From Escherichia phage EC148, in the sequence record NC_106721.1: DNA of 64,000 nucleotides, one strand, 5' to 3'. This document shows positions 1,123-39,846 of the stretch, in pieces (the first letter of the stretch is position 1; each line of letters opens with the position of its first letter). The translations under genes and the position numbers were made by a program. The notes below the pieces were generated by a model, which worked only from the letters and a program-made list of their open reading frames with translations, made no database searches and had not been told where the DNA came from.

Positions 1123-1638
1123 TTACTTCGCTTTACGCTTGCGAGCTGGTTTAGCAGATTTACGAGCAGAATCACCAGTGAACTTAATGCCTACACCGTA
1201 ACACAGAGCGCGAACATTATCTTTACTATACTCTACGCCAAAGATATTTGGCTTAACAGAACCAAACTGTCCACGAGTATCGCGCAATACATCTGCTGTT
1301 GGTTTACGCTTCTGGTTAACTGCCTTCTCGTAGTCTTTCATAGACATACCATTACGAGAGAACAATTCAGCCCCAGCGTTGAAACTCAAAGATACTGGGA
1401 CAGATTTGTGGCCGTAATTTTCTACATACATAACCATTTTGTAGGATTTACGGGTGGCATTTTTAGCTTTAGGCTTCTTACGAATCGGAGCCGGATTATT
1501 CAATGCTTGCGCAGCCTGAGCATCGGTAGGATGCTTACGCAGGTGACGTTCCAGACGAGCTTTGCGATTAGCCTCGGTCTGCGGGAAAGTTTTAACTGCC
1601 GGGGCTGCTTGAGTTTTTGCGTTTTTCTGCTTAGCCAT
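1123..1638 (-). CDS. hypothetical Lys/Arg-rich protein (171 aa), possible nucleic-acid binding
   Basis: ORF track; basic N- and C-terminal tails; T5-type early promoter directly upstream (1677-1705). Confidence 0.55.
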   Translation of the reverse strand: MAKQKNAKTQAAPAVKTFPQTEANRKARLERHLRKHPTDAQAAQALNNPAPIRKKPKAKNATRKSYKMVMYVENYGHKSVPVSLSFNAGAELFSRNGMSMKDYEKAVNQKRKPTADVLRDTRGQFGSVKPNIFGVEYSKDNVRALCYGVGIKFTGDSARKSAKPARKRKAK

Positions 1639-11870: not shown

Positions 11871-11878
11871 GCTAATCA

Positions 11879-11910
11879 GCCGGGTTGCTAGTCGACCTGG
11901 CTTTTATTTT
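11879..11910 (+). terminator. intrinsic terminator after nrdD
   Basis: Stem GCCGGGU/ACCUGGC with 9-nt loop, then TTTTATTTT. Confidence 0.65.
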
Positions 11911-11912
11911 AT

Positions 11913-11941
11913 TTGCTTTCAGCCAAAAATTTATATATAAT
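11913..11941 (+). promoter_or_regulatory. T5-type early promoter (TTGCTT-17-TATAAT)
   Basis: Followed by AGATTTATAAATTTGAGAGGAG. Confidence 0.7.
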
Positions 11942-11969
11942 AGATTTATAAATTTGAGAGGAGAAAGAT

Positions 11970-12350
11970 ATGGAATTAAAGCCCTATATAGTTGAATCTA
12001 CATGTGGTAGTTTCCATCTGGGTGTAGATGATATTGCTGAGGCTGTCTTTGCTGCCACAGGTGATTACTCGCATATAGAGGGTGTTGGATACCCTACCAT
12101 TATTGGCGATTGGGTGGGAACAAATCTAGATGTATCGCCTTATAACCCATATTGCTTGTTTGATGAAGACAGAGATGAAGTAAAATGTAATCTTGAATTT
12201 GTGTATAATAGAGTGTTAAAAGTATACCAACGTAGCCCCAATGGGTACGAAGATATTACTTGGAGTATTAAACAGTATCTTAAAGATGTATACTCTAGTT
12301 TTTCTGACGAAGACCTAGAAACAGTTGCAGTGGAGTTTAATAATGACTAA
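11970..12350 (+). CDS. hypothetical acidic protein (126 aa)
   Basis: ORF track; T5-type promoter 11913-11941 and GAGGAG RBS. Confidence 0.5.
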   Translation: MELKPYIVESTCGSFHLGVDDIAEAVFAATGDYSHIEGVGYPTIIGDWVGTNLDVSPYNPYCLFDEDRDEVKCNLEFVYNRVLKVYQRSPNGYEDITWSIKQYLKDVYSSFSDEDLETVAVEFNND

Positions 12351-12549
12351 GAATGTGAAACACCTTAAATATCGCTTAATTTACAACGGACGTATGGAAA
12401 CAGAAGATCTGGCCCAATTAGCTATTAACTCTAATGAGGTTACAGTGCGTGCACTGGCAATTGAAAAGTTGCGTGCCTCTTATGAAAATCGTGTTATGGA
12501 ACTAGAGGAGAAACTTTATGGCATTCTCGAAGCCGATACTACCAGATAA
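12343..12549 (+). CDS. hypothetical protein (68 aa)
   Basis: ATG at 12343 overlaps the upstream stop (TAATG); the ORF-track start at 12325 is less likely. Confidence 0.4.
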   Translation: MTKNVKHLKYRLIYNGRMETEDLAQLAINSNEVTVRALAIEKLRASYENRVMELEEKLYGILEADTTR

Positions 12550-12739
12550 GGGTTTAAACTCCGCTTTGGAAAATGCATTAATGCAGCAGTGGGAAACTGG
12601 CTATAAGGATGGTGTTGAATCCTGCGCTACTATGCTAGAAGTTATTGCTAATACCTTAATGGAGAAAGGCAATAAAGAATTAGCTGAGCTATTAGACAGT
12701 ATTGGGCAAAACTTCAGAGAACAGGTGAAAAATGCGTAG
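12518..12739 (+). CDS. hypothetical protein (73 aa)
   Basis: ORF track; GGAGAAA RBS upstream. Confidence 0.45.
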   Translation: MAFSKPILPDKGLNSALENALMQQWETGYKDGVESCATMLEVIANTLMEKGNKELAELLDSIGQNFREQVKNA

Positions 12740-13568
12740 ATTAATTATTATTAGTGGTGCGGGTTTGAGTGTTGAAAGTGGTGTACGAGCCTTCCGTACT
12801 GATACTGCTAGTGGTAAAGCATTGTGGGATGACTATGATCTAGAAGAAGTATGTAATATTCATGCCTTTCGTGGTAATTTTTATCATAAAACCCATATGT
12901 TTTACAACAAGCGTCGTGAAGAGCTAAAAACTGTTGAACCCAATCTTGCGCATTTGCGTATTGGTGAATGGTATAAACAATATCCAGGTCAAGTAGTAAA
13001 CTTGACTACCAACGTTGATGACCTTATTGAGCGTGCTGGCGTTCCACATAGTGACATTCTGCATATTCACGGATATTTAAAAGAGGTTGTTGTAGCTGAT
13101 AGCTACAATAGTAGCAATAAACGGATTATTGATGTAGGATACAATTCTATTGATCCAGATGATTATAAATGGGTTAAACCTAATGTAATCTTCTTTGGAG
13201 AGCATGCTCCTGCATACGCAGAAATGTATAATGTTTTTGACGGTATTACCAGTCAAGATATGATCATTGTGGTTGGTTGCTCTAACCAAGTAATTAACTT
13301 CTACTGGGAATTATTTCCTGTTCTTAATAGGACTGCTGCGAAATTTATGGTAGTTAACTACTATGATAGTGCCCTCGCGGCGGAACCGGGCTATCAAGGT
13401 ATGACTCGTAGTGAGATGTACCAGCTGGAAGAACGTGGTGTCCCTTACTGGAGTAAAGGTGCGGTAGATGCTTTTAGTGATCCTGATTTTATTGCTCGTG
13501 TAGAAGCTCATTTAGAGGGTAGACCTTATGTGTCGAGAAGCAAGGGAAACAGATATGTCCATAGTTAA
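12732..13568 (+). CDS. Sir2-family protein (NAD+-dependent deacylase or NADase fold) without the zinc ribbon
   Basis: Motifs GAGLSVESGVRAFR, PNLAHLRI, TTNVDDL, HIHG, VIFFGE and IIVVGCS match sirtuin Rossmann-fold signatures; no 2xCxxC Zn module present. Confidence 0.75.
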   Translation: MRRLIIISGAGLSVESGVRAFRTDTASGKALWDDYDLEEVCNIHAFRGNFYHKTHMFYNKRREELKTVEPNLAHLRIGEWYKQYPGQVVNLTTNVDDLIERAGVPHSDILHIHGYLKEVVVADSYNSSNKRIIDVGYNSIDPDDYKWVKPNVIFFGEHAPAYAEMYNVFDGITSQDMIIVVGCSNQVINFYWELFPVLNRTAAKFMVVNYYDSALAAEPGYQGMTRSEMYQLEERGVPYWSKGAVDAFSDPDFIARVEAHLEGRPYVSRSKGNRYVHS

Positions 13569-13737
13569 ATCTGTGTATACACACCCCGATGATATATTTG
13601 TATGGGCGGATGGTAGTTGGTGCTATCGCTGTGAGCTGTGGGAGATGGACTATAAATCCGATGACTATGGTGTTATATATGTTGATACGGTTGAGTATGA
13701 TACGTTCTTAGAAAGGAACAAAAATGGAAATAAGTAA
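13555..13737 (+). CDS. hypothetical small protein (60 aa)
   Basis: ATG at 13555 (MSIVKSVY...); overlaps both neighbours; start uncertain. Confidence 0.35.
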   Translation: MSIVKSVYTHPDDIFVWADGSWCYRCELWEMDYKSDDYGVIYVDTVEYDTFLERNKNGNK

Positions 13738-14230
13738 TACTCCAATTATTTTTCTAGATATTGATGGGGTGCTCAATTCGAGCATCTCCCACCATCATGC
13801 ACCTGATGACGAAAAGATTTTCTTTGGAAGTGATTGGGTTTTCAAACCGCTTCTCAAGGCTTTTCAGGACTTTATTCGTCCTTCTCCGATAATGATTGTT
13901 GGAGTATCCTCATGGTTCTCTGTCAGGAATGAGATGGAGAACGTTCAGATTATGACCGGATTAGGTCTTATCGATCGTTTTCTTGGTACAACGGATTTTA
14001 CTGGGGGTGGATTATCTAGGGGTAATTCTGTTCTTCGCTTCGTTGAAAAGCATAAGCTCAAACATTGGTGTGTTCTGGATGACGCTGGTGCTATGATGTA
14101 CCAGTATCCAACGGTTATAGTCAACGGTAGAACTGGAATAAATCTTCAAGATTTAATGGCTGTTAGCTATATGCTAGAATTTAGTCCAGATCTTGAAATG
14201 TGTAAAGCCCTACAACAATTTAAGGTGTAA
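13724..14230 (+). CDS. HAD-superfamily phosphatase-like protein
   Basis: 168 aa; motif I FLDIDGVLN (DxDG), motif II VGVSSW, motif IV VLDDAG. Confidence 0.6.
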   Translation: MEISNTPIIFLDIDGVLNSSISHHHAPDDEKIFFGSDWVFKPLLKAFQDFIRPSPIMIVGVSSWFSVRNEMENVQIMTGLGLIDRFLGTTDFTGGGLSRGNSVLRFVEKHKLKHWCVLDDAGAMMYQYPTVIVNGRTGINLQDLMAVSYMLEFSPDLEMCKALQQFKV

Positions 14231-14232
14231 AT

Positions 14233-14661
14233 ATGTTCAATAATGTATTCTCTAAAGAAGCTAACCCAATTTTGGTTAACTTTTGGCGTACTCTACCGGC
14301 TAGCCTGTATAATGAGGCTATTAACTCCTTGAAAATATGGTGTGAGAATAACGAAATCTCCTTTGCTTTTAAAGATGATATTGATGAGGCCCCCTGTATT
14401 GGTTTAATTGTGCAGGTAGAGGATGGTCTTGAAGAGATTGTGGGCTGGAAAGAGTTAGACGAAATGGGCTTAGTTTTTGCGTTAAATTATAAGCTGTTTA
14501 TGCCTGCTAAGCATCGCCTTGTTGTTAACTATAAAACTAGTGAATCTCCTGGTTTTCAGGTTAATGAACGTTATGGTTGGTCTTACTCACCGGAAGAAGT
14601 AAATGAGGGGATTCAGAAACTTCGACGTTTCGGGTATATGATCCCAGGTTTAACTGCTTAA
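14233..14661 (+). CDS. hypothetical protein (142 aa), paralog of the next gene
   Basis: Shares ...PC[IV]G...W.EL..MGL[IV].ALN..LF.P...PGL[TN] with 14671..15063. Confidence 0.55.
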   Translation: MFNNVFSKEANPILVNFWRTLPASLYNEAINSLKIWCENNEISFAFKDDIDEAPCIGLIVQVEDGLEEIVGWKELDEMGLVFALNYKLFMPAKHRLVVNYKTSESPGFQVNERYGWSYSPEEVNEGIQKLRRFGYMIPGLTA

Positions 14662-14670
14662 GGAGGCAGA

Positions 14671-15063
14671 ATGGAACAAGTATATTGGCGTCAGATTGAT
14701 CCTAGTTTGGTGAAACGTGCGGAGAAGCTGCTACAACGTTGGTTGGGGGTAAGACAAGCCTCCTTCACTTTTCCGGAGCAGCAAATAGATGATCCCTGTG
14801 TTGGTGTTTTCCTATCCGGCTACGCGGGGGAATGGGAGTTGGATTGGAATGAGTTGTCTGCTATGGGTTTAATTGTTGCCCTAAATTTCTCTTTGTTCCA
14901 CCCACGTGGTTTGGCCATATGTCGTGTGTCGGATGATGGTTGTTCGCCCCATCTTTTACAGGTGGAAGATGATATTTGGGAGTACACTCCAGATATTCTC
15001 AAAGAAGCTAAAGAACAATTAAACCGTGTTGGGATTTATGTTCCAGGCTTAAATGATGAATGA
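14671..15063 (+). CDS. hypothetical protein (130 aa), paralog of the previous gene
   Basis: Tandem duplicate of 14233..14661; AGGAGG RBS; followed by an intrinsic terminator. Confidence 0.55.
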   Translation: MEQVYWRQIDPSLVKRAEKLLQRWLGVRQASFTFPEQQIDDPCVGVFLSGYAGEWELDWNELSAMGLIVALNFSLFHPRGLAICRVSDDGCSPHLLQVEDDIWEYTPDILKEAKEQLNRVGIYVPGLNDE

Positions 15064-15086
15064 TTTTTATTAGCTGAACTCTGATT

Positions 15087-15112
15087 ACCGAGTCATTTTG
15101 GCTCGGTTTTAT
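15087..15112 (+). terminator. intrinsic terminator after the accessory cluster
   Basis: Stem ACCGAG/CTCGGT with 9-nt loop, then TTTTA. Confidence 0.55.
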
Positions 15113-15154
15113 CCGTACTCAAGACCAATGATAGCACCATCCGGAAAATTTTAC

Positions 15155-15183
15155 TTGCAGGATGCCCAAAATCTTGATATAAT
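15155..15183 (+). promoter_or_regulatory. T5-type early promoter (TTGCAG-17-TGaTATAAT) heading a ~500-nt untranslated region
   Basis: Extended -10 TG present; conserved ATTTATATTGAATTGAGAGAC downstream; no ORF for ~500 nt. Confidence 0.6.
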
Positions 15184-15682
15184 ATTTATATTGAATTGAG
15201 AGACATTAGTAAAAATTGATTTTGCTAATTTTTCTTGTTTACAATCCGCGATACGGAACAGTTAGGCTGCCCCATTAAGGGTTGTTTTAACTGTTACGTG
15301 TTAGTTTTTAAACAAATAGTTAATAGAATACTTAGCGATCTGCGTCCCATAGGAACCCTGGTAAGGCCTCGAAGCAACCTAGTATGAGGTGGTTGTGAAG
15401 TGAGATGGGAGGAGTGAAAAACTCCGAGACGTGATTCTGTAAGTTATATTGCATCTAGTATGAGCTAGTATATGAAGCATTAGGTGAGCAAATCTGGCTT
15501 AGCGGCCATCCTCAAGGATTTGTGCGATATAGCAAAGCAGCAGCGCAGCGTGAAAGTGGAAGTTGCCACCCCCCTTCAGTATTTGCGATTAATTTGTTGA
15601 GAAATTGACAGTAACAGTTGTTCTATTCTTTCTGAATAGTCCTAAAGAAAACTTATTTTATTTCCAACACAGGAGTATTGTT

Positions 15683-26480: not shown

Positions 26481-29048
26481 TTGAAAATCGCAGTAGTTGA
26501 TAAAGCTCTAAATAACACTCGTTACGATAAACATTTCCAGCTATACGGCGAGGAAGTTGATGTATTTCATATGTGTAACGAGAAGTTATCTGGTCGTTTG
26601 CTTAAAAAGCACATTACTATTGGAACACCAGAAAATCCATTTGATCCGAATGATTACGATTTTGTTATACTAGTAGGTGCTGAACCTTTCCTGTATTTCG
26701 CAGGTAAGAAAGGCATTGGTGACTATACTGGTAAACGTGTAGAATATAATGGATATGCTAACTGGATTGCAAGTATCAGCCCAGCCCAGTTACACTTTAA
26801 GCCTGAAATGAAACCAGTTTTCGATGCAACAGTAGAGAATATCCACGATATTATCAATGGTCGTGAAAAGATTGCAAAAGCTGGTGATTACCGTCCTATT
26901 ACTGACCCTGATGAGGCGGAAGAATATATCAAGATGGTGTATAATATGGTTATCGGACCTGTCGCATTCGACTCCGAAACCTCAGCACTATACTGTCGAG
27001 ATGGTTATCTGCTTGGTGTTTCTATATCTCACCAAGAGTATCAGGGTGTATATATCGATTCTGATTGTCTCACAGAGGTTGCAGTATATTATCTCCAGAA
27101 AATTCTGGATAGTGAAAACCACACTATTGTTTTTCACAACTTGAAGTTTGATATGCACTTTTATAAGTACCATCTGGGACTTACTTTTGATAAAGCACAT
27201 AAAGAACGCAGGCTCCATGATACAATGTTGCAGCATTATGTTCTAGATGAGCGTCGTGGTACTCATGGCTTGAAATCTCTAGCAATGAAGTATACCGATA
27301 TGGGTGACTATGACTTTGAACTAGATAAGTTCAAAGATGATTACTGCAAAGCACATAAAATCAAGAAAGAAGATTTCACCTATGATTTAATTCCGTTTGA
27401 TATTATGTGGCCTTACGCTGCAAAAGATACCGATGCCACCATACGCTTGCACAACTTCTTCTTACCAAAAATTGAGAAGAATGAAAAACTTTGCAGTCTG
27501 TATTATGATGTTCTAATGCCTGGTTGTGTATTTCTCCAGCGTGTTGAGGATCGTGGTGTACCAATTTCTATTGATCGCTTGAAAGAAGCTCAGTATCAGT
27601 TAACTCATAATCTGAATAAAGCTCGTGAGAAACTATATACTTATCCAGAAGTCGTTCAGCTAGAAAAAGATCAGAATGAAGCGTTTAATCCAAACTCTGT
27701 TAAGCAGCTACGTGTTCTTCTGTTTGATTATGTTGGCTTAACTCCAACAGGTAAATTGACGGATACTGGAGCAGACTCTACAGATGCAGAAGCTCTGAAC
27801 GAACTGGCTACGCAGCATCCAATTGCTAAGACTCTACTAGAGATTCGTAAGCTGACCAAGCTGATCTCTACTTATGTTGAGAAGATTCTTCTGAGTATTG
27901 ATGCAGATGGTTGCATTCGTACTGGTTTCCACGAACATATGACTACTTCTGGTCGTCTGAGTTCTTCTGGTAAACTGAACTTGCAACAGTTACCTCGTGA
28001 TGAATCTATTATCAAGGGTTGTGTAGTAGCTCCTCCTGGGTATCGTGTAATCGCATGGGACTTAACAACTGCGGAAGTTTATTATGCTGCTGTTCTATCT
28101 GGGGATAGAAATATGCAACAGGTATTTATCAATATGAGAAATGAACCTGATAAATACCCGGACTTCCACTCTAACATCGCACACATGGTATTTAAACTCC
28201 AATGCGAGCCTCGTGATGTTAAAAAGTTATTCCCAGCTCTGCGTCAGGCTGCTAAGGCAATTACCTTCGGTATTTTGTATGGTTCTGGCCCAGCTAAAGT
28301 AGCTCATTCTGTTAACGAAGCTCTTCTGGAACAGGCTGCTAAGACAGGAGAACCGTTTGTTGAATGTACTGTTGCGGATGCGAAGGACTATATCGAAACT
28401 TACTTCGGTCAGTTCCCACAGCTTAAGCGTTGGATTGATAAGTGCCACGATCAGATTAAGAATCATGGATTTATCTATAGTCACTTTGGTCGTAAGCGTC
28501 GTCTGCACAATATCCACTCCGAAGACCGTGGTGTTCAGGGTGAAGAAATTCGTTCTGGATTTAACGCAATCATTCAGTCTGCTTCCTCTGATAGCCTCCT
28601 TTTAGGTGCTGTAGATGCAGATAATGAGATCATTTCTCTTGGCCTAGAACAAGAGATGAAGATTGTTATGCTGGTTCATGACTCCGTGGTTGCTATTGTT
28701 CGTGAGGATTTGATCGACCAATACAATGAAATCCTGATTCGTAATATTCAGAAAGACCGTGGTATCAGTATTCCTGGCTGTCCGATTGGTATTGATTCAG
28801 ATTCTGAAGCTGGAGGTTCTCGTGACTATTCTTGTGGTAAGATGAAGAAACAGCACCCATCAATCGCTTGTATTGATGATGATGAATATACTCGTTATGT
28901 CAAGAGTGTATTACTTGATGCAGAGTTCGAGTATAAGAAACTAGCTGCAATGGATAAAGAGCATCCAGATCATAGCAAATACAAGGATGATAAGTTTATT
29001 GCTGTATGTAAAGATTTGGATAACGTAAGAAGGATTCTCGGTGCTTGA
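26481..29048 (+). CDS. DNA polymerase, family A, with 3'-5' exonuclease domain
   Basis: 855 aa; Exo I AFDSETSALY; motif B RQAAKAITFGILYGSG; motif C VHDSVV. TTG start at 26481 with GAGGAG RBS. Confidence 0.9.
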   Translation: MKIAVVDKALNNTRYDKHFQLYGEEVDVFHMCNEKLSGRLLKKHITIGTPENPFDPNDYDFVILVGAEPFLYFAGKKGIGDYTGKRVEYNGYANWIASISPAQLHFKPEMKPVFDATVENIHDIINGREKIAKAGDYRPITDPDEAEEYIKMVYNMVIGPVAFDSETSALYCRDGYLLGVSISHQEYQGVYIDSDCLTEVAVYYLQKILDSENHTIVFHNLKFDMHFYKYHLGLTFDKAHKERRLHDTMLQHYVLDERRGTHGLKSLAMKYTDMGDYDFELDKFKDDYCKAHKIKKEDFTYDLIPFDIMWPYAAKDTDATIRLHNFFLPKIEKNEKLCSLYYDVLMPGCVFLQRVEDRGVPISIDRLKEAQYQLTHNLNKAREKLYTYPEVVQLEKDQNEAFNPNSVKQLRVLLFDYVGLTPTGKLTDTGADSTDAEALNELATQHPIAKTLLEIRKLTKLISTYVEKILLSIDADGCIRTGFHEHMTTSGRLSSSGKLNLQQLPRDESIIKGCVVAPPGYRVIAWDLTTAEVYYAAVLSGDRNMQQVFINMRNEPDKYPDFHSNIAHMVFKLQCEPRDVKKLFPALRQAAKAITFGILYGSGPAKVAHSVNEALLEQAAKTGEPFVECTVADAKDYIETYFGQFPQLKRWIDKCHDQIKNHGFIYSHFGRKRRLHNIHSEDRGVQGEEIRSGFNAIIQSASSDSLLLGAVDADNEIISLGLEQEMKIVMLVHDSVVAIVREDLIDQYNEILIRNIQKDRGISIPGCPIGIDSDSEAGGSRDYSCGKMKKQHPSIACIDDDEYTRYVKSVLLDAEFEYKKLAAMDKEHPDHSKYKDDKFIAVCKDLDNVRRILGA

Positions 29049-29538
29049 TTTCAAATTGCCCGTCTATGCGTTACGGGCGTTTGTATCAATTGAGCAAGAA
29101 GGTGATTATTCCGTAATTACAACAAGATATAATAAATATGTGCTAGATAACAGGAAGTTGCCTGGCACGTTTTCTCAACGTAGGCTCATTCTATTTGAGA
29201 AACGGAAAGAATTACCGTACAAGCTCTATCCTATTAGAGGTAGAATATCAATGTTGTCCCAATTAGTTGGGTCAAAGCGTAGCCAATTTATAGATTCTGA
29301 TGGAAATCTTATTAATTGGAAGAAAACTACGTTCTATGATGTTGTTACCTCTAAAGTTTTGAATTCAGCTAGAATTTATAACGGAAAATACCAATGCTAT
29401 GTAGCTAAAGTTCCATACCCATTTGTATTATCCTATGTTCCAGCTTATATAAGCTATATTCTGGTAAATAATAGCCCTGTTATTTATCAAGTCCATCAAG
29501 AGGAGCCTGAAATTCCTAGACTTAGAATAAAATTATGA
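29041..29538 (+). CDS. hypothetical protein (165 aa)
   Basis: GTG start overlapping the polymerase stop (GTGCTTGA). Confidence 0.45.
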   Translation: MLDFKLPVYALRAFVSIEQEGDYSVITTRYNKYVLDNRKLPGTFSQRRLILFEKRKELPYKLYPIRGRISMLSQLVGSKRSQFIDSDGNLINWKKTTFYDVVTSKVLNSARIYNGKYQCYVAKVPYPFVLSYVPAYISYILVNNSPVIYQVHQEEPEIPRLRIKL

Positions 29539-35477: not shown

Positions 35478-36352
35478 TGAGTAAATCCTGGGGAAAATTT
35501 ATTGAAGAAGAGGAAGCTGAAATGGCTTCCCGTCGTAACCTAATGATTGTCGATGGAACTAACTTAGGCTTTCGCTTCAAACATAACAACAGTAAAAAAC
35601 CATTTGCCTCAAGTTATGTTTCCACTATTCAGTCTCTAGCAAAATCTTATTCTGCTAGAACTACAATAGTTTTAGGAGATAAGGGGAAGTCTGCATTCCG
35701 CTTAGAGCATTTACCTGAGTATAAGGGTAATCGAGATGAGAAATACTCTCAGCGTACGGAAGAGGAGAAAGCGTTAGATGAGCAGTTCTTCGAGTATTTG
35801 AAAGATGCTTTCGAGTTATGTGAAACTACATTCCCAACTTTCACTATTCGGGGTGTAGAAGCAGATGATATGGCAGCTTATATTGTTAAACTGATCGGGC
35901 ATCTATATGATCACGTTTGGCTGATTTCTACTGATGGTGACTGGGATACTTTATTAACTGATAAAGTATCTCGCTTCTCTTTCACAACACGTCGTGAATA
36001 CCATCTTCGTGATATGTATGAGCATCATAATGTTGACGATGTAGAGCAGTTTATCTCCCTGAAAGCAATTATGGGTGATTTAGGGGATAATATCCGAGGT
36101 GTTGAAGGTATTGGGGCAAAGCGCGGGTATAATATTATTCGTGAATTTGGTAACGTTCTGGATATTATTGATCAGCTTCCACTGCCTGGAAAACAGAAAT
36201 ATATACAGAATTTAAATGCTTCGGAAGAATTGCTTTATCGAAACCTAATTCTGGTTGATTTACCTACCTACTGTGTGGATGCTATTGCTGCTGTAGGTCA
36301 AGATGTATTAGATAAATTTACAAAAGATATTTTGGAGATTGCAGAACAATGA
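35477..36352 (+). CDS. flap endonuclease / 5'-3' exonuclease (T5 D15-like)
   Basis: 291 aa; N-terminal LMIVDGTNLGFR resembles the Pol I 5'-nuclease family; size matches T5 D15 as I recall it. Confidence 0.85.
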   Translation: MSKSWGKFIEEEEAEMASRRNLMIVDGTNLGFRFKHNNSKKPFASSYVSTIQSLAKSYSARTTIVLGDKGKSAFRLEHLPEYKGNRDEKYSQRTEEEKALDEQFFEYLKDAFELCETTFPTFTIRGVEADDMAAYIVKLIGHLYDHVWLISTDGDWDTLLTDKVSRFSFTTRREYHLRDMYEHHNVDDVEQFISLKAIMGDLGDNIRGVEGIGAKRGYNIIREFGNVLDIIDQLPLPGKQKYIQNLNASEELLYRNLILVDLPTYCVDAIAAVGQDVLDKFTKDILEIAEQ

Positions 36353-36795
36353 TTAAAATTAAATTAACTCATCCAGATTGTATGCCTAAGATTGGTTCCG
36401 AAGATGCCGCAGGTATGGATCTGCGAGCATTCTTTGGTACTAATCCTGCCGCAGACTTACGCGCTATTGCACCAGGCAAATCTCTTATGATTGACACCGG
36501 TGTCGCGGTAGAAATTCCGCGAGGTTGGTTCGGTTTGGTAGTTCCTCGTAGTTCTTTAGGTAAACGCCATTTGATGATTGCAAATACCGCAGGAGTGATT
36601 GACTCAGACTATCGTGGAACTATTAAGATGAATCTGTTTAACTACGGTTCTGAAATTCAAACTCTGGAGAATTTTGAAAGACTTTGTCAGCTAGTAGTAG
36701 TACCACACTACTCAACTCATAATTTTGAAATCGTTGACGAACTAGAGGAGACTGATCGTGGGGAAGGCGGATTTGGAAGTTCAGGAAGCAAATAA
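36349..36795 (+). CDS. dut: dUTPase
   Basis: 148 aa; motif GVIDSDYRG. Confidence 0.9.
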   Translation: MIKIKLTHPDCMPKIGSEDAAGMDLRAFFGTNPAADLRAIAPGKSLMIDTGVAVEIPRGWFGLVVPRSSLGKRHLMIANTAGVIDSDYRGTIKMNLFNYGSEIQTLENFERLCQLVVVPHYSTHNFEIVDELEETDRGEGGFGSSGSK

Positions 36796-37021
36796 TTTTA
36801 CTGATCCTAATATGATAGGTATTGATACTAATATGTTAACTTATCAGATTAAAACTGCTGAACCAGAAACGTTTGTGCTAAAAACAGATAAAGAAGGTAA
36901 TGTTACTTTCTGGGACCCTGAAGGTTTTGTAGAGCTTTGTACTAATACGGATAATGAGCATTTAAAACTACTATTAGCTATTTATAATCTTGGTATTATA
37001 GAAGGTTGTAGAAGCAAGTAA
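36758..37021 (+). CDS. hypothetical protein (87 aa)
   Basis: ORF track; last gene before the bidirectional terminator. Confidence 0.4.
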   Translation: MGKADLEVQEANNFTDPNMIGIDTNMLTYQIKTAEPETFVLKTDKEGNVTFWDPEGFVELCTNTDNEHLKLLLAIYNLGIIEGCRSK

Positions 37022-37024
37022 TAG

Positions 37025-37061
37025 AAAAACCCCGGTGGATTTTGTCCACCGGGGTTTCTTT
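37025..37061. terminator. bidirectional intrinsic terminator between the convergent early and late operons
   Basis: AAAAA, 10-bp stem CCCCGGTGGA/TCCACCGGGG with 5-nt loop, then TTTCTTT. Confidence 0.8.
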
Positions 37062-37077
37062 GTACTATGTATATGTA

Positions 37078-39846
37078 CTATGAGTTATCTGGCTTAATAA
37101 GCTCGCTAACAAGTTTCTTCAGTTCGGTTAATTCTTGCTCAAGTTTGTTAACTTTATCAGCTTGATAACGAAATGCGCAAGCTAGATCTGCCATAATGAC
37201 GTTGTTATCAAGTGCTAATGTGTCATCTGCTTTGTCAACAACAATTTGGCGGTCTACATATTCTTCACCGTCATCGTTAACACCTATAACATCTGCAAAA
37301 ATATCTCCACCAGGAATTAATTTTACATATTCCGGGTCTATTTTTAGAAGGTCTTGGGCTATTAAGCCAAATCGCTGTATGTTGCTTCCATTGTATTTAA
37401 ACATTGTCGGAAGCCACTGCATAACGCGATCATAGCTTTCTTTTCCATCTGTATAGATTATATCGTGCTTTAAATCTCTGTCAGAGTTAGCGGCCTTTTG
37501 AAAAATGAAGTTTCCATTTGATGACCATGTGGTTATATCGTTTGAGGCTGGTTGAAACTGGAAGTTACAGAAAAAATTACCATCACCACGAAGTCTTAAC
37601 GAGCAAAAAGGCCAAGCATTATTTCCCTGTGGGATAAGACCCCAAGTTGCACGAATTGGATAACCACCAGTTGATTGTGTACCCCATGAAAGGCCAGGCG
37701 CCCATCCACCATCATTGTTAGGAATAATCTCGCCCCAAACAAGAGCATTACCCCAATAGTTAGGATCATCCCAGCCCATTTGTTGGGTTTTGCCAGTGTA
37801 TTGAGCAGAATGAGTTCTGCCGTCAGGGTAAAACTTGTGCATATAGGACTGTATCCCTGCTTGATACAATTCTATTCCAAAAGATTCAACGTGTGTGTCG
37901 CCTCTTCTGATTAAACCAGCGATAGCGTAATCGTCATACCAGTTGTAACGACTTACACCAGTCCATGTGTTTATTGGTGGATTCATGATTGAGAATAGTT
38001 GTGACGCATTGCGTTCATTCCCGTCTGCATAAATACCAGCCCCAGGAGCTAAGGAAATACTTTTCGCTCCCGAAAAAGTACCATTTTCATTAAACTGATA
38101 ATACTGTGCTAACCCATTATGAAATACGCCTATTGTATGCTTTCCTACGCCTACTTGAGTCTCAAAATACGACTGAGAAGAACCAATATCTTCGCCTTGG
38201 GTATTCTTTAGTTTTGAATGGTATATACCTGCGTTTGCAGTAACTGCATTTTCCGTTTCATTTTCAACATTAAGACTAAGGAACTTTGGCGCATGTTTCT
38301 CACCAAGCCCTATATTATTTCTGATACCATTCGCATCCTTAGCACCTGTACCACCAAATTGAATACCTAGTGGTAGCCATTGATCGGTGGTAGCATCATA
38401 AACGCCCCAATGATCCCCGTCAGCTGGAATGGTTAGATACTTGTTTTTATTTGGAGAATATAAAACTGTTTCTCCAGAATTCTGAAACAGCCTATCAACT
38501 CCTAAATTATATCTAGCACCTTCAGGAGTATCTGCTCCTGTACCCCCAGCCGCAGTTGATAATGGAAGAGTTTCCCATGAAATTCCGTCACCTGTTGCAT
38601 TTCTCTGAAGTACAATAAGACCATCATCTCTAATAACAAATCTATATAATCTATTATGTGAATATAAAAAAGTATGAACCCCATCTTGCACAAGTGAGTC
38701 TATAAGGAGTGTCTGACGAGAAGCATTGATATCCAACAGATCTGAAAGATTATTTTCTTTTAATAACGATTTACTAATGATACCTTCAGCTTTTCCAGCA
38801 GCCACTTCCGCGCGCCCAGCGTCTGTAGATGCGCTTTGTGCGCTACCAGCAGCATTGCTAGCTTGTTGTCCTGCTTCGATAGCGCTATTGCTTGCTTGTG
38901 CAGCGGAAGCAGCAGCAGCATCTTTTAGCGTGGTAGTTTCGGACACAGCAGCGTCCTTAATTCCCTGTGTGTCTATTTTTAGCTGCTCAACGTCTGATTT
39001 TAAAGCTACTGTCTCTGCTACTGCAGTATCCTTAATACCTTGTGTATCTATTTTTAGCTGTTCAACATCTGATTTTAAGCCTTGAATAGTAGTTACTGAT
39101 TGGCTAGCTGAGGCTGCGGAATGGGCTGCATTGGTTTCACTAGTTTTTGCATTGGTTTCACTAGTTTTTGCATTAGTTTCACTAGCTTTTGCATTAGTTT
39201 CCGAGGTTTTTGCAGCGGATGCTGATGCGGCGGCTTGTGCAGAGAATATTTCTGCCCCATCTCTATAGCCTTTAGAATCCGAAGCAGAAGCAGCAGCATT
39301 AGTTTCACTAGCCTTTGCCTTATCTTCACTAGTCTTTGCTGCAATAGCAGAAGCAGCAGCATTAGTTTCACTAGCCTTTGCATTAGTCTCACTAGTTTTT
39401 GCGTTAGTCTCACTAGTTTTTGCGTTAGTCTCACTAGTTTTTGCATTAGTTTCACTAGCCTTTGCCTTATCTTCGCTAGTTTTAGCATTAGTCTCAGATA
39501 TTTTAGCTGCAGCTGCTGATTCCTCCGATTTAGTAGCTGATGCAGCAGATTGAGTAGCAGATGTAGCGGACTGAGTGGCAGAGGCTTCAGAAGCTCCAGC
39601 AGAAATAGCAGCTTCCTGTTCAGAGTTCTTAGCATTAAGCTCCGAAGTTTTAGCCGCTATCTCAGAATCTTTTGCAGCTGCAGCAGACTTAGCTGCAGCC
39701 TCAATAGAAGATACTAACTCACTTGCAGTAATAGAGCTAATAGAATTACCTAGAGTTACTGTATATCTAGGAAACTTACTAGCAGTAGCTTTAGTATCAT
39801 CAATATTTAATATTTGTTGTACAATAATTTTAGTAGTTACTGCCAT
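37078..39846 (-). CDS. ltf: L-shaped tail fibre protein with C-terminal intramolecular chaperone
   Basis: 922 aa; N-terminal K(T/A)SETNA heptad repeats; C-terminal ...NVIMADLACAFRYQ...LEQELTELKK segment resembles self-cleaving chaperone domains. Confidence 0.75.
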   Translation of the reverse strand: MAVTTKIIVQQILNIDDTKATASKFPRYTVTLGNSISSITASELVSSIEAAAKSAAAAKDSEIAAKTSELNAKNSEQEAAISAGASEASATQSATSATQSAASATKSEESAAAAKISETNAKTSEDKAKASETNAKTSETNAKTSETNAKTSETNAKASETNAAASAIAAKTSEDKAKASETNAAASASDSKGYRDGAEIFSAQAAASASAAKTSETNAKASETNAKTSETNAKTSETNAAHSAASASQSVTTIQGLKSDVEQLKIDTQGIKDTAVAETVALKSDVEQLKIDTQGIKDAAVSETTTLKDAAAASAAQASNSAIEAGQQASNAAGSAQSASTDAGRAEVAAGKAEGIISKSLLKENNLSDLLDINASRQTLLIDSLVQDGVHTFLYSHNRLYRFVIRDDGLIVLQRNATGDGISWETLPLSTAAGGTGADTPEGARYNLGVDRLFQNSGETVLYSPNKNKYLTIPADGDHWGVYDATTDQWLPLGIQFGGTGAKDANGIRNNIGLGEKHAPKFLSLNVENETENAVTANAGIYHSKLKNTQGEDIGSSQSYFETQVGVGKHTIGVFHNGLAQYYQFNENGTFSGAKSISLAPGAGIYADGNERNASQLFSIMNPPINTWTGVSRYNWYDDYAIAGLIRRGDTHVESFGIELYQAGIQSYMHKFYPDGRTHSAQYTGKTQQMGWDDPNYWGNALVWGEIIPNNDGGWAPGLSWGTQSTGGYPIRATWGLIPQGNNAWPFCSLRLRGDGNFFCNFQFQPASNDITTWSSNGNFIFQKAANSDRDLKHDIIYTDGKESYDRVMQWLPTMFKYNGSNIQRFGLIAQDLLKIDPEYVKLIPGGDIFADVIGVNDDGEEYVDRQIVVDKADDTLALDNNVIMADLACAFRYQADKVNKLEQELTELKKLVSELIKPDNS
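39128..39505 (-). repeat. two arrays of 21-bp tandem repeats inside ltf, encoding K(T/A)SETNA heptads
   Basis: Units such as GCATTGGTTTCACTAGTTTTT repeat 4 times (39128-39211) and about 9 times with variants (39296-39505). Confidence 0.9.

Follow-up and report, generated by a model that had tools for sequence, protein, structure and literature searches.

The locus described here raises the question of what a virulent phage does with a sirtuin that lacks zinc ligands and is encoded beside a HAD phosphatase in an operon of its own. It lies at positions 11970-15063, on the + strand, of a 64,000-nucleotide stretch of Escherichia phage EC148 (sequence record NC_106721.1; the whole stretch is referred to as the window), in which eight tightly packed open reading frames (ORFs) form one operon with a promoter and a terminator at its ends. 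An accessory operon of a virulent phage carrying a Sir2-like and a HAD-like protein had been recognized in a preliminary description made from the sequence alone; this view is confirmed, and all of the ORFs that it placed in the region are present. The answer favoured here, with a probability of roughly 40%, is that the two enzymes carry out a phosphate-directed ADP-ribosyl transfer of the Tpt1 type, probably on damaged RNA, in which the HAD protein would clear phosphate from the ADP-ribose by-product or from the RNA end. The two enzymes are as follows.

12732-13568 (+): sirtuin T5.102, 278 amino acids, PF02146; a class III-like SIR2 protein without zinc ligands, in which the TQNID motif reads TTNVD
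13724-14230 (+): capless HAD phosphatase T5.105 (HAD_SAK_2), 168 amino acids, PF18143

The designations are those of the T5 reference, where the counterpart of the cluster comprises T5.100-T5.107 and T5.102 has carried the annotation Sir2 ever since the T5 genome was recorded. The features are thus not new, nor is the Sir2-HAD association, which has been published: phage sirtuins found together with a HAD protein of the 'Swiss-army-knife-like' sort constitute neighbourhood type 3, with Escherichia phage SP15 as its prototype, and Tpt1/KptA-like NAD-dependent removal of RNA 2'-phosphates has been predicted for them (Iyer, Burroughs, Anantharaman & Aravind, 2022; Viruses 14:1977, PMC9503650). 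The SP15 locus is the same as the one in the window, with 94.7% identity over 98% of the cluster; its Sir2 gene adjoins HAD_SAK_2 and nothing material differs. To type 3 the present analysis adds two DUF7415 paralogues, the family of a 126-amino-acid ORF and several small ORFs as recurrent neighbours.

The sirtuin and its zinc ligands

The sirtuin matches the Pfam model PF02146 (SIR2) with an E value of 8e-25 and 88.2 bits against a cut-off of 24, over profile positions 1-178 of 180, and the profile search therefore gives no reason to place it in a non-Sir2 family. The NAD-binding and catalytic signatures quoted for it beforehand (GAGLSVESGVRAFR, TTNVDDL, HIHG, FFGE and VVGCS) are all present. 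Of the residues conserved without exception in 31 sequences of the clade, G9, A10, G11 and S13 make up the NAD-binding G-A-G-x-S motif of the Rossmann fold and F21 and R22 the F-R of the cofactor loop; the others include Y58, R61, T93, N94, D96, H113, G114, F154-F155-x-E157 and N209. In a careful alignment N94, D96, H113 and G114 line up with the TQNID and HMHG motifs of E. coli CobB, leaving the catalytic Asn, Asp and His intact. Y58-x-x-R61 lines up with F-Y-N-A-R of CobB and is invariant in all 120 close homologues. As judged from these alignments, the protein keeps everything required for the binding of NAD+, the expulsion of nicotinamide and the use of the catalytic His, together with the Tyr/Arg pair by which class III sirtuins hold an anionic group.

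Only two cysteines, C41 and C183, are found in the whole protein, neither of them within the stretch of 40 residues that separates HG from FFGE; at the position of the first zinc cysteine of CobB stands V/A, and the C-H-C-C knuckle is deleted. The protein had been described as zinc-ribbon-less. The absence of the Cys4 ligands is upheld by the alignment and the cysteine count, but the ribbon itself does not appear to be missing. An AlphaFold (AF2) model built on 31 homologues (predicted local distance difference test score, pLDDT, 88; predicted template-modelling score, pTM, 0.86) keeps a three-stranded β-module, with strands 114-122, 131-134 and 147-152, at the position of the ribbon of zinc sirtuins, and the segment is as long as in four-cysteine relatives. 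The wording 'ribbon-less' was rejected on these two grounds, and the protein is better called zinc-ligand-less. A similar absence of the zinc ligand has been reported for the Sir2/CobB proteins of a Vibrio phage and of KVP40, with T5 listed among the carriers (Skliros et al., 2016; PMC5107563).

The loss of the zinc ligands is accompanied by a change next to the catalytic Asn. The Gln of TQNID is replaced by Thr93 in 120 of 120 close homologues, all of which have 0-2 Cys in the segment and the Y-x-x-R motif. For a wider view, 145 sirtuin representatives at 50% identity, taken from a search of 1.84 billion proteins, were compared at the alignment columns of query residues 93 and 114-154. Gln is present in 88 of the 145 and another residue (Thr, Ser or Ala) in 57; Gln occurs with at least three Cys in 80 proteins and with 0-2 Cys in eight, while a residue other than Gln occurs with at least three Cys in 15 and with 0-2 Cys in 42 (Fisher p = 6e-16, phylogeny not corrected for, with exceptions in both directions). 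These counts indicate that the loss of the zinc ligands and the Gln-to-Thr change travel together, which is an addition to the published record. On these sequence characters the clade is a distinct lineage that branches from the Y-x-x-R sirtuins, an offshoot of class III (CobB/SIRT5-like) that is specific to phages and devoid of zinc ligands. A search of 50,697 phage records found it in about 1,000, among them the model phage T5 as well as therapeutic T5-like and rV5-like phages.

The closest characterized proteins suggest a conventional function. A PDB sequence search retrieved E. coli CobB (E 2e-17), at an identity of only 24%, and Foldseek ranked CobB first among PDB structures (1s5p, E 1.5e-17, target-normalized template-modelling, TM, score 0.85), the top 50 structural neighbours being without exception CobB, Sir2Af1/2, SIRT5 or Sir2Tm deacylases. 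With CobB and SIRT5 the phage protein shares the fold and the GAGxS, FR, N-x-D, HG, FGE and Y-x-x-R motifs, catalytic residues included, and CobB-type models are its sole NCBIfam matches. It might thus be an NAD-dependent protein lysine deacylase (given the Y-x-x-R motif, a deacetylase, desuccinylase or demalonylase) that replaces or outcompetes host CobB and resets the acylation of host or phage proteins early in infection, the HAD protein and the other ORFs being functionally unrelated neighbours in a hyper-variable accessory slot; deacylation has been proposed for the Vibrio phage homologues (PMC5107563), and it is in keeping with it that Sugarlandvirus and Vibrio phage nt-1 carry Sir2 and lack HAD. 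The NCBIfam scores are, however, far under the cut-offs of the CobB equivalogs (100.7 versus 243 bits for NF001753 and 90.4 versus 320 for NF040867), the near-universal Gln of TQNID is Thr throughout the clade, and the V-Y-P motif of the substrate tunnel of CobB reads V-I-N, differences that add to the absent zinc ligands and the deleted knuckle. Neither a Macro domain nor an O-acyl-ADP-ribose esterase is encoded nearby, and deacylation leaves unexplained the repeated linkage of this sirtuin to cREC, Nudix, RNA ligase and HAD genes in unrelated phage lineages. A plain deacylase, which would make the finding an ordinary one, is regarded as possible, although we lean away from it.

The reduced zinc region had also been likened to that of bacterial immune effectors, which would make the protein an NAD+ glycohydrolase of the ThsA, DSR or SIR2-HerA kind that depletes or reshapes host NAD+ during takeover. 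Sirtuins are able to hydrolyse NAD+ slowly, the zinc ligands are indeed lost and the operon is accessory and apparently early. Like the defence NADases (ThsA, DSR1/2, SIR2-HerA, SPARSA; SIR2_2), the phage protein belongs to the SIR2 superfamily, would have NAD+ as its substrate and lacks a Cys4 zinc site. It nevertheless belongs to another family: PF02146 is its only match at E ≤ 1, the SIR2_2 model (PF13289) is not matched and the PADLOC defence models match none of the eight ORFs at E ≤ 0.1. Its structural neighbours are also different, with no defence Sir2 among the top 50, and it retains the small domain with the acyl/anion-binding residues, Y58-x-x-R61 among them. Whereas the defence enzymes have a sensor or partner (SLOG, HerA, pAgo or a long C-terminal sensor), this sirtuin is a single domain of 278 amino acids, and no sensor or partner was found as a fusion or in the operon, where its neighbours are HAD, DUF7415 and small ORFs. 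The phage, moreover, needs NAD+ for its own DNA ligase, and related phages with this Sir2 clade belong to a group that invests in rebuilding NAD+. The defence-type NADase was rejected on the evidence of family, fold and PADLOC and is considered very improbable; by its predicted fold, together with the PADLOC and NCBIfam results, the protein belongs with the canonical sirtuins.

Gene neighbourhoods and the nature of the acceptor

The evidence that carries the favoured reading comes mainly from the company that this sirtuin keeps in other phages. The arrangements compared include the following, contigs and genomes being denoted by L numbers where needed.

rV5: an operon encoding Rnl1-type RNA ligase, cREC and Sir2 and, further on, ATP-dependent DNA ligase; Metallophos and P-loop kinase genes diverge from it
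Klebsiella Mydovirus-like phage: phosphoesterase, RNA ligase, cREC, kinase, Sir2, DNA ligase, MazG
jumbo Salmonella phage SD-15_S21: Sir2, Nudt16-like Nudix (4-nt overlap), cREC
151-kb contig L021, 2211-5993: Metallophos, RNA ligase, kinase, DNA ligase, MazG; neither cREC nor Sir2

In the cases examined Sir2 and cREC occur jointly or not at all: both are found in L003 4642-5762, L004 4013-5777 and L008 3965-5595 (rV5, the Klebsiella Mydovirus-like phage and the jumbo Salmonella phage) and both are missing from the otherwise similar RNA-ligase cluster of L021 and from the genome of Serratia phage ChuuTotoro. This joint occurrence is a further addition to the published record. The same Sir2 clade thus appears, by sequence, beside genes for RNA ends or ADP-ribose phosphates in three independent phage lineages, and it is this recurrent accompaniment of the sirtuin by cREC, Nudix and HAD proteins and by enzymes that heal and seal RNA ends, in lineages that are not related to each other, that chiefly favours a phosphate acceptor. 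The cREC, Nudix and HAD proteins would process phosphorylated or cyclic-phosphorylated ADP-ribose, while hydrolases of O-acyl-ADP-ribose were not found beside the clade.

According to the mechanism envisaged, the sirtuin would have a phosphate as its acceptor in place of an acyl-lysine. It would transfer ADP-ribose to an RNA 2'-phosphate and free the latter as ADP-ribose (cyclic) phosphate, acting as a non-homologous functional analogue of Tpt1/KptA in the healing of RNA cut by host nucleases. HAD_SAK_2 would then take off the phosphate; the RNA end is one candidate substrate, and the likelier one is ADP-ribose phosphate, which would yield ADP-ribose, a job performed elsewhere by Poa1p or by the phage Macro protein Adpp. 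The parallel between the sirtuin and Tpt1 mechanisms also speaks for this reading: a nucleophile attacks C1'' of NAD+ and the 2''-OH group of the ribose then resolves the adduct (for the two steps of Tpt1, see PMC11417386). The proposed chemistry resembles that of Tpt1/KptA and Poa1p/Adpp in that NAD+ is spent, the RNA 2'-phosphate leaves as ADP-ribose cyclic phosphate and the latter is opened and dephosphorylated, and a likeness of pathway is suggested by relatives outside the T5-like phages, in which the sirtuin gene is linked to those of RNA ligase, kinase and cyclic-phosphate enzymes. The folds, on the other hand, are unrelated (sirtuin versus ADP-ribosyltransferase, ART; HAD versus Macro), and since the phage protein has a sirtuin and not an ART fold it can only be an analogue of Tpt1, not a member of its family. 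Iyer et al. (2022; PMC9503650) had independently arrived at the same prediction of RNA repair.

Within the Demerecviridae the pairing of the two genes survives a change of gene order. In T5 and in Epseptimavirus, the arrangement of which is the same as in the window, Sir2 is followed by HAD, whereas the divergent contigs L010, L014 and L015 have the order HAD, an ORF of 81-117 amino acids, Sir2 and an ORF of about 60 amino acids, with no DUF7415 gene. A T5-like genome from IMG/VR (L042; 108,050 bp) has suffered a clean deletion of 1.32 kb corresponding to 12593-13912 of the window (L042 6001-6003), which takes the end of the 73-amino-acid ORF, all of Sir2, the 60-amino-acid ORF and residues 1-63 of HAD, that is, its catalytic N-terminus. 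This natural deletion indicates that the module is dispensable and that its two enzymes are lost together. The same truncation of HAD is seen in Salmonella phage Shivani. The preserved adjacency and the joint natural loss both count in favour of the mechanism proposed.

A number of observations weigh against the reading just set out. The partners are not obligate, since Sugarlandvirus has Sir2 and two DUF7415 genes without HAD, and ChuuTotoro has HAD without Sir2. T5-like phages differ from types 1 and 2 of Iyer et al. in having none of their ligase, cREC and kinase genes, which is also an addition of this analysis: when rV5-type RNA ligase, cREC, kinase, Adps and Namat were searched for by tblastn in the window and in the initial 50 kb of a relative with 97% identity, nothing matched at E ≤ 1, and none is found in T5-like annotation. 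With neither ligase nor cyclic phosphodiesterase, the sealing of the RNA and the opening of a cyclic phosphate would need host enzymes or the remaining ORFs of the operon. For an enzyme that handles RNA, the acidity of the Sir2 clade (median isoelectric point 5.2) is unusual, and the nearest characterized relatives of the clade are all protein deacylases. The function of cREC is itself a prediction, and no experimental work on T5.100-T5.107, HAD_SAK_2, DUF7415 or phage sirtuins was found in the literature.

A bolder form of the proposal, which we put forward as tentative and rather doubt, is that the phage clade represents the first sirtuins with a phosphate as physiological acceptor, be it an RNA 2'-phosphate or another terminal phosphate, and is a non-homologous replacement for Tpt1/KptA; the loss of the zinc ligands, the Gln-to-Thr change and the retained Y-x-x-R would mark the switch, and HAD would be a second, HAD-fold solution to the clean-up of ADP-ribose phosphates otherwise performed by Macro proteins. 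Removal or ADP-ribosylation of RNA phosphates by a sirtuin would be a new chemistry for these enzymes. If RNA phosphates are the target, phages would have an added route for the repair of nuclease-cut tRNA that ties RNA repair to the economy of NAD+, now known to be central in the conflict between phage and host. T5 genetics and purified proteins make every one of the readings directly testable.

The HAD phosphatase and NAD+ reconstitution operons

The second enzyme matches PF18143 (HAD_SAK_2) in Pfam with an E value of 4e-20 and 73 bits against a cut-off of 27.5, over profile positions 1-138 of 139. Across 13 sequences, of which the most distant share 37% identity, no variation is seen at D12 and D14 (FLDIDGVLN), S62/S63, R99 and D119/D120. 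Motifs I (the DxD nucleophile/acid pair), II (Ser) and IV (the acidic pair D119/D120) are thus intact, and R99, located in GGGxxRG, is a candidate for motif III. A PDB sequence search with this protein returned no relatives. Many GenBank/RefSeq records wrongly give it the label 'Sir2 (NAD-dependent deacetylase)', a consequence of its match to phrog_18062, a family that bears this name; no SIR2 domain was found in it, and as a result of the mislabelling many records list two 'Sir2' genes. The first gene of the T5-like phage PP407513 (L017 110-844, - strand), in a region outside the window, is annotated 'polynucleotide kinase' (phrog_415), and we take it to be dmp, the deoxynucleotidase gene of T5, whose product is a phosphatase of the HAD type; in that case it would be a second HAD gene with a questionable label in a T5-like genome.

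The closest relatives of this HAD outside the Demerecviridae, which are 37-43% identical and have all catalytic residues unchanged, are located directly upstream of Prs-like and NAPRTase-family genes in four of four loci (ChuuTotoro, a 152-kb JGI contig and two further contigs of 62 and 151 kb), in each case co-directional or overlapping with Adps-Namat. In these Vequintavirinae-like phages HAD is the first or second gene of the following NARP1 operons.

L009: 6001-9217
L011: 6001-9569
L013/L021: 10001-13519 in L021
ChuuTotoro (ON287369): 35888-39104

NARP1, which consists of Adps and Namat, rebuilds NAD+ from ADP-ribose and nicotinamide (bioRxiv 10.1101/2024.02.11.579819). According to a 2026 preprint, some of these operons carry the Macro-domain phosphatase Adpp, which converts the ADP-ribose-1''-phosphate arising from RES-type defence to ADP-ribose, and a phosphatase in NARP1 operons was shown experimentally to defeat aRES; the sections consulted make no mention of HAD (bioRxiv 10.64898/2026.01.28.702374). 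The placement of HAD_SAK_2 relatives in ChuuTotoro-like phages recalls the NARP1-AP arrangement (Adps-Adpp-Namat; Osterman et al., 2024, 2026), in which a phosphatase gene lies within an NAD+ reconstitution operon, with the difference that the published phosphatase is a Macro-domain and not a HAD protein. By analogy, HAD may be the HAD-fold counterpart of Adpp. Its link to NARP1 is a new lead of this analysis and, together with the biochemistry of the sirtuin, keeps the locus moderately interesting. Were HAD a phosphatase of ADP-ribose phosphates, NARP1 would have two types of accessory enzyme, the Macro-domain Adpp and HAD, and such a clean-up role would explain the place of HAD both beside Sir2 in T5-like phages and in the NARP1 operons of ChuuTotoro-like phages, extending NAD+ reconstitution to phosphorylated ADP-ribose.

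These findings can also be accommodated by a counter-defence that acts on small molecules. As a non-homologous analogue of Adpp, HAD would dephosphorylate ADP-ribose-1''-phosphate produced by RES-type defence, or 2'-phospho-ADP-ribose or NADP+, while the sirtuin would act on NAD+ metabolites, for example by reversible exchange of nicotinamide, and thereby protect or rebuild the NAD+ pool on which the NAD-dependent DNA ligase of the phage relies. The four Adps-Namat operons, the absence of Sir2 from the entire ChuuTotoro genome and the reported action of a NARP1-operon phosphatase on aRES are all consistent with this, as is the presence of a NADAR protein and an NAD-dependent ligase in the T5-like genome. 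T5-like phages differ from the NARP1-AP carriers, however, in having no match to Adps or Namat in the tblastn search, so that ADP-ribose made by HAD would have no known route to NAD+. To our knowledge, no sirtuin catalyses net synthesis of NAD+. A HAD identity of 39% is no guarantee of a common substrate, other HAD relatives lie beside RNA-repair genes without NARP1, and the linkage of Sir2 to cREC and RNA ligase is not explained. This alternative is considered improbable.

Phosphate-directed ADP-ribosyl transfer by the sirtuin, followed by phosphate removal by HAD, is favoured by both kinds of context, HAD relatives recurring near RNA ligase, kinase and Metallophos genes and near cREC as well as in NARP1 operons, which consume ADP-ribose; the usefulness of an ADP-ribose-1''-phosphate phosphatase in a NARP1 operon, known from experiments (bioRxiv 10.64898/2026.01.28.702374), points in the same direction. 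Among distant HAD relatives in IMG/VR, four loci lie beside kinase/RNA ligase/Metallophos clusters, one beside cREC and two within 4 kb of a Namat homologue, while most have no recognizable neighbour. In T4-like Aeromonas and Proteus phages the neighbours of HAD, in the variable region of dda, dexA and topoisomerase, are all hypothetical, and a Pfam search of the ORFs that relatives have between HAD and either Sir2 or Adps gave nothing above noise.

Layout of the operon and its other genes

The operon is that of a Tequintavirus: positions 11900-15150 of the window share 99.0% identity with Escherichia phage T5_ev212 and 93-97% with dozens of genomes of this genus. The operon lies between nrdD, upstream, and the gene for the origin-binding helicase, downstream, and its eight ORFs overlap or are separated by gaps of at most 9 nt, most of them being preceded by Shine-Dalgarno-like sequences. 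Apart from the two enzymes, it comprises the following features.

11878-11902 (+): intrinsic terminator of the upstream nrdD, from the terminator scanner; 10-bp stem with six GC pairs, then a T-run; also annotated in the T5 reference
11913-11941 (+): promoter-like site TTGCTT-17 nt-TATAAT, read off the sequence itself; a promoter is annotated at this place in the T5 reference
11970-12350 (+): T5.100, 126 amino acids, acidic, phrog_11748; ORF with no family or fold assignment
12343-12549 (+): T5.101, 68 amino acids, phrog_5236; start codon from the annotation of relatives
12518-12739 (+): ORF of 73 amino acids, phrog_5827, variable among T5-like phages
13555-13737 (+): T5.104, 60 amino acids, phrog_5116; follows Sir2 in all Demerecviridae examined
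14233-14661 (+): T5.106, DUF7415 protein a, 142 amino acids, acidic; Pfam PF24187, E 3e-35, two repeats
14671-15063 (+): T5.107, DUF7415 protein b, 130 amino acids, acidic; two DUF7415 repeats, paralogue of T5.106 (31% identity)
15087-15112 (+): intrinsic terminator ending the operon; hairpin ACCGAGUCA/UGGCUCGGU and then UUUUAU, -13.2 kcal/mol, z = -4.2; also annotated in the T5 reference

The view that the cluster is a transcription unit of its own, bounded by the promoter and the last of these terminators, agrees with the T5 reference, which has the same succession of terminator, promoter and terminator around T5.100-T5.107. The -10 hexamer at 11913-11941 is perfect and the -35 hexamer matches at three of six positions, a weakness that puts the site below the threshold of the promoter scanner and explains why it was not listed; from its sequence it probably works as a promoter. 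The operon appears to be an early accessory module of T5-like phages.

The NAD/ADP-ribose-related context invoked in the preliminary description is supported. A NADAR-domain protein is encoded at 1714-2163 (PF08719, E 7e-22), some 10 kb away from the operon on the other (-) strand, and the annotation of a 97% identical relative has an NAD-dependent DNA ligase roughly 6 kb downstream. The ORF at 29041-29538 is not the NADAR gene. The suggestion of a host-takeover or counter-defence module acting on NAD+ or ADP-ribose derivatives is reasonable in its broader sense, and a role of the operon in conflict with the host is plausible, although the NADase analogy from which the suggestion had been drawn was mostly mistaken.

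The four small ORFs match solely PHROG families of unknown function. The 126-amino-acid ORF has no match in Pfam, PADLOC or NCBIfam, and its homologues sit between HAD and Sir2 in the divergent Demerecviridae-like contigs L015 (2894-3247, E 1e-9) and L010 (5712-6065, E 1.6e-4), a position from which the protein may be a third conserved component of the Sir2-HAD module. An ORF of 57-61 amino acids follows Sir2 in L010, L014 and L015. The 73-amino-acid ORF gave no tblastn match in the T5 reference locus.

The DUF7415 proteins are small, acidic and confined to phages. They are not core to the Sir2-HAD pair, as they are absent from the contigs in which HAD precedes Sir2. A DUF7415 model with a pLDDT of 87.5 matched no solved fold, its BFVD matches were DUF7415 proteins only, and a PDB sequence search found no relatives. 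The BFVD matches include a protein of Vibrio phage nt-1, which also carries this Sir2. The labels 'tail protein' and 'tail tube protein' given to DUF7415 in some records found no support.

A search of the whole window for tRNA genes found none. Between the terminator of the operon and the origin-binding helicase gene, about 490 nt (15113-15604) contain no convincing ORF, no Rfam match and no tRNA; the T5 reference puts a promoter there. The helicase ORF as listed begins at a TTG codon (15605), well upstream of the annotated start of T5.108. At the other end, the NADAR gene adjoins that of a DUF7022 protein at 1123-1638 (- strand).

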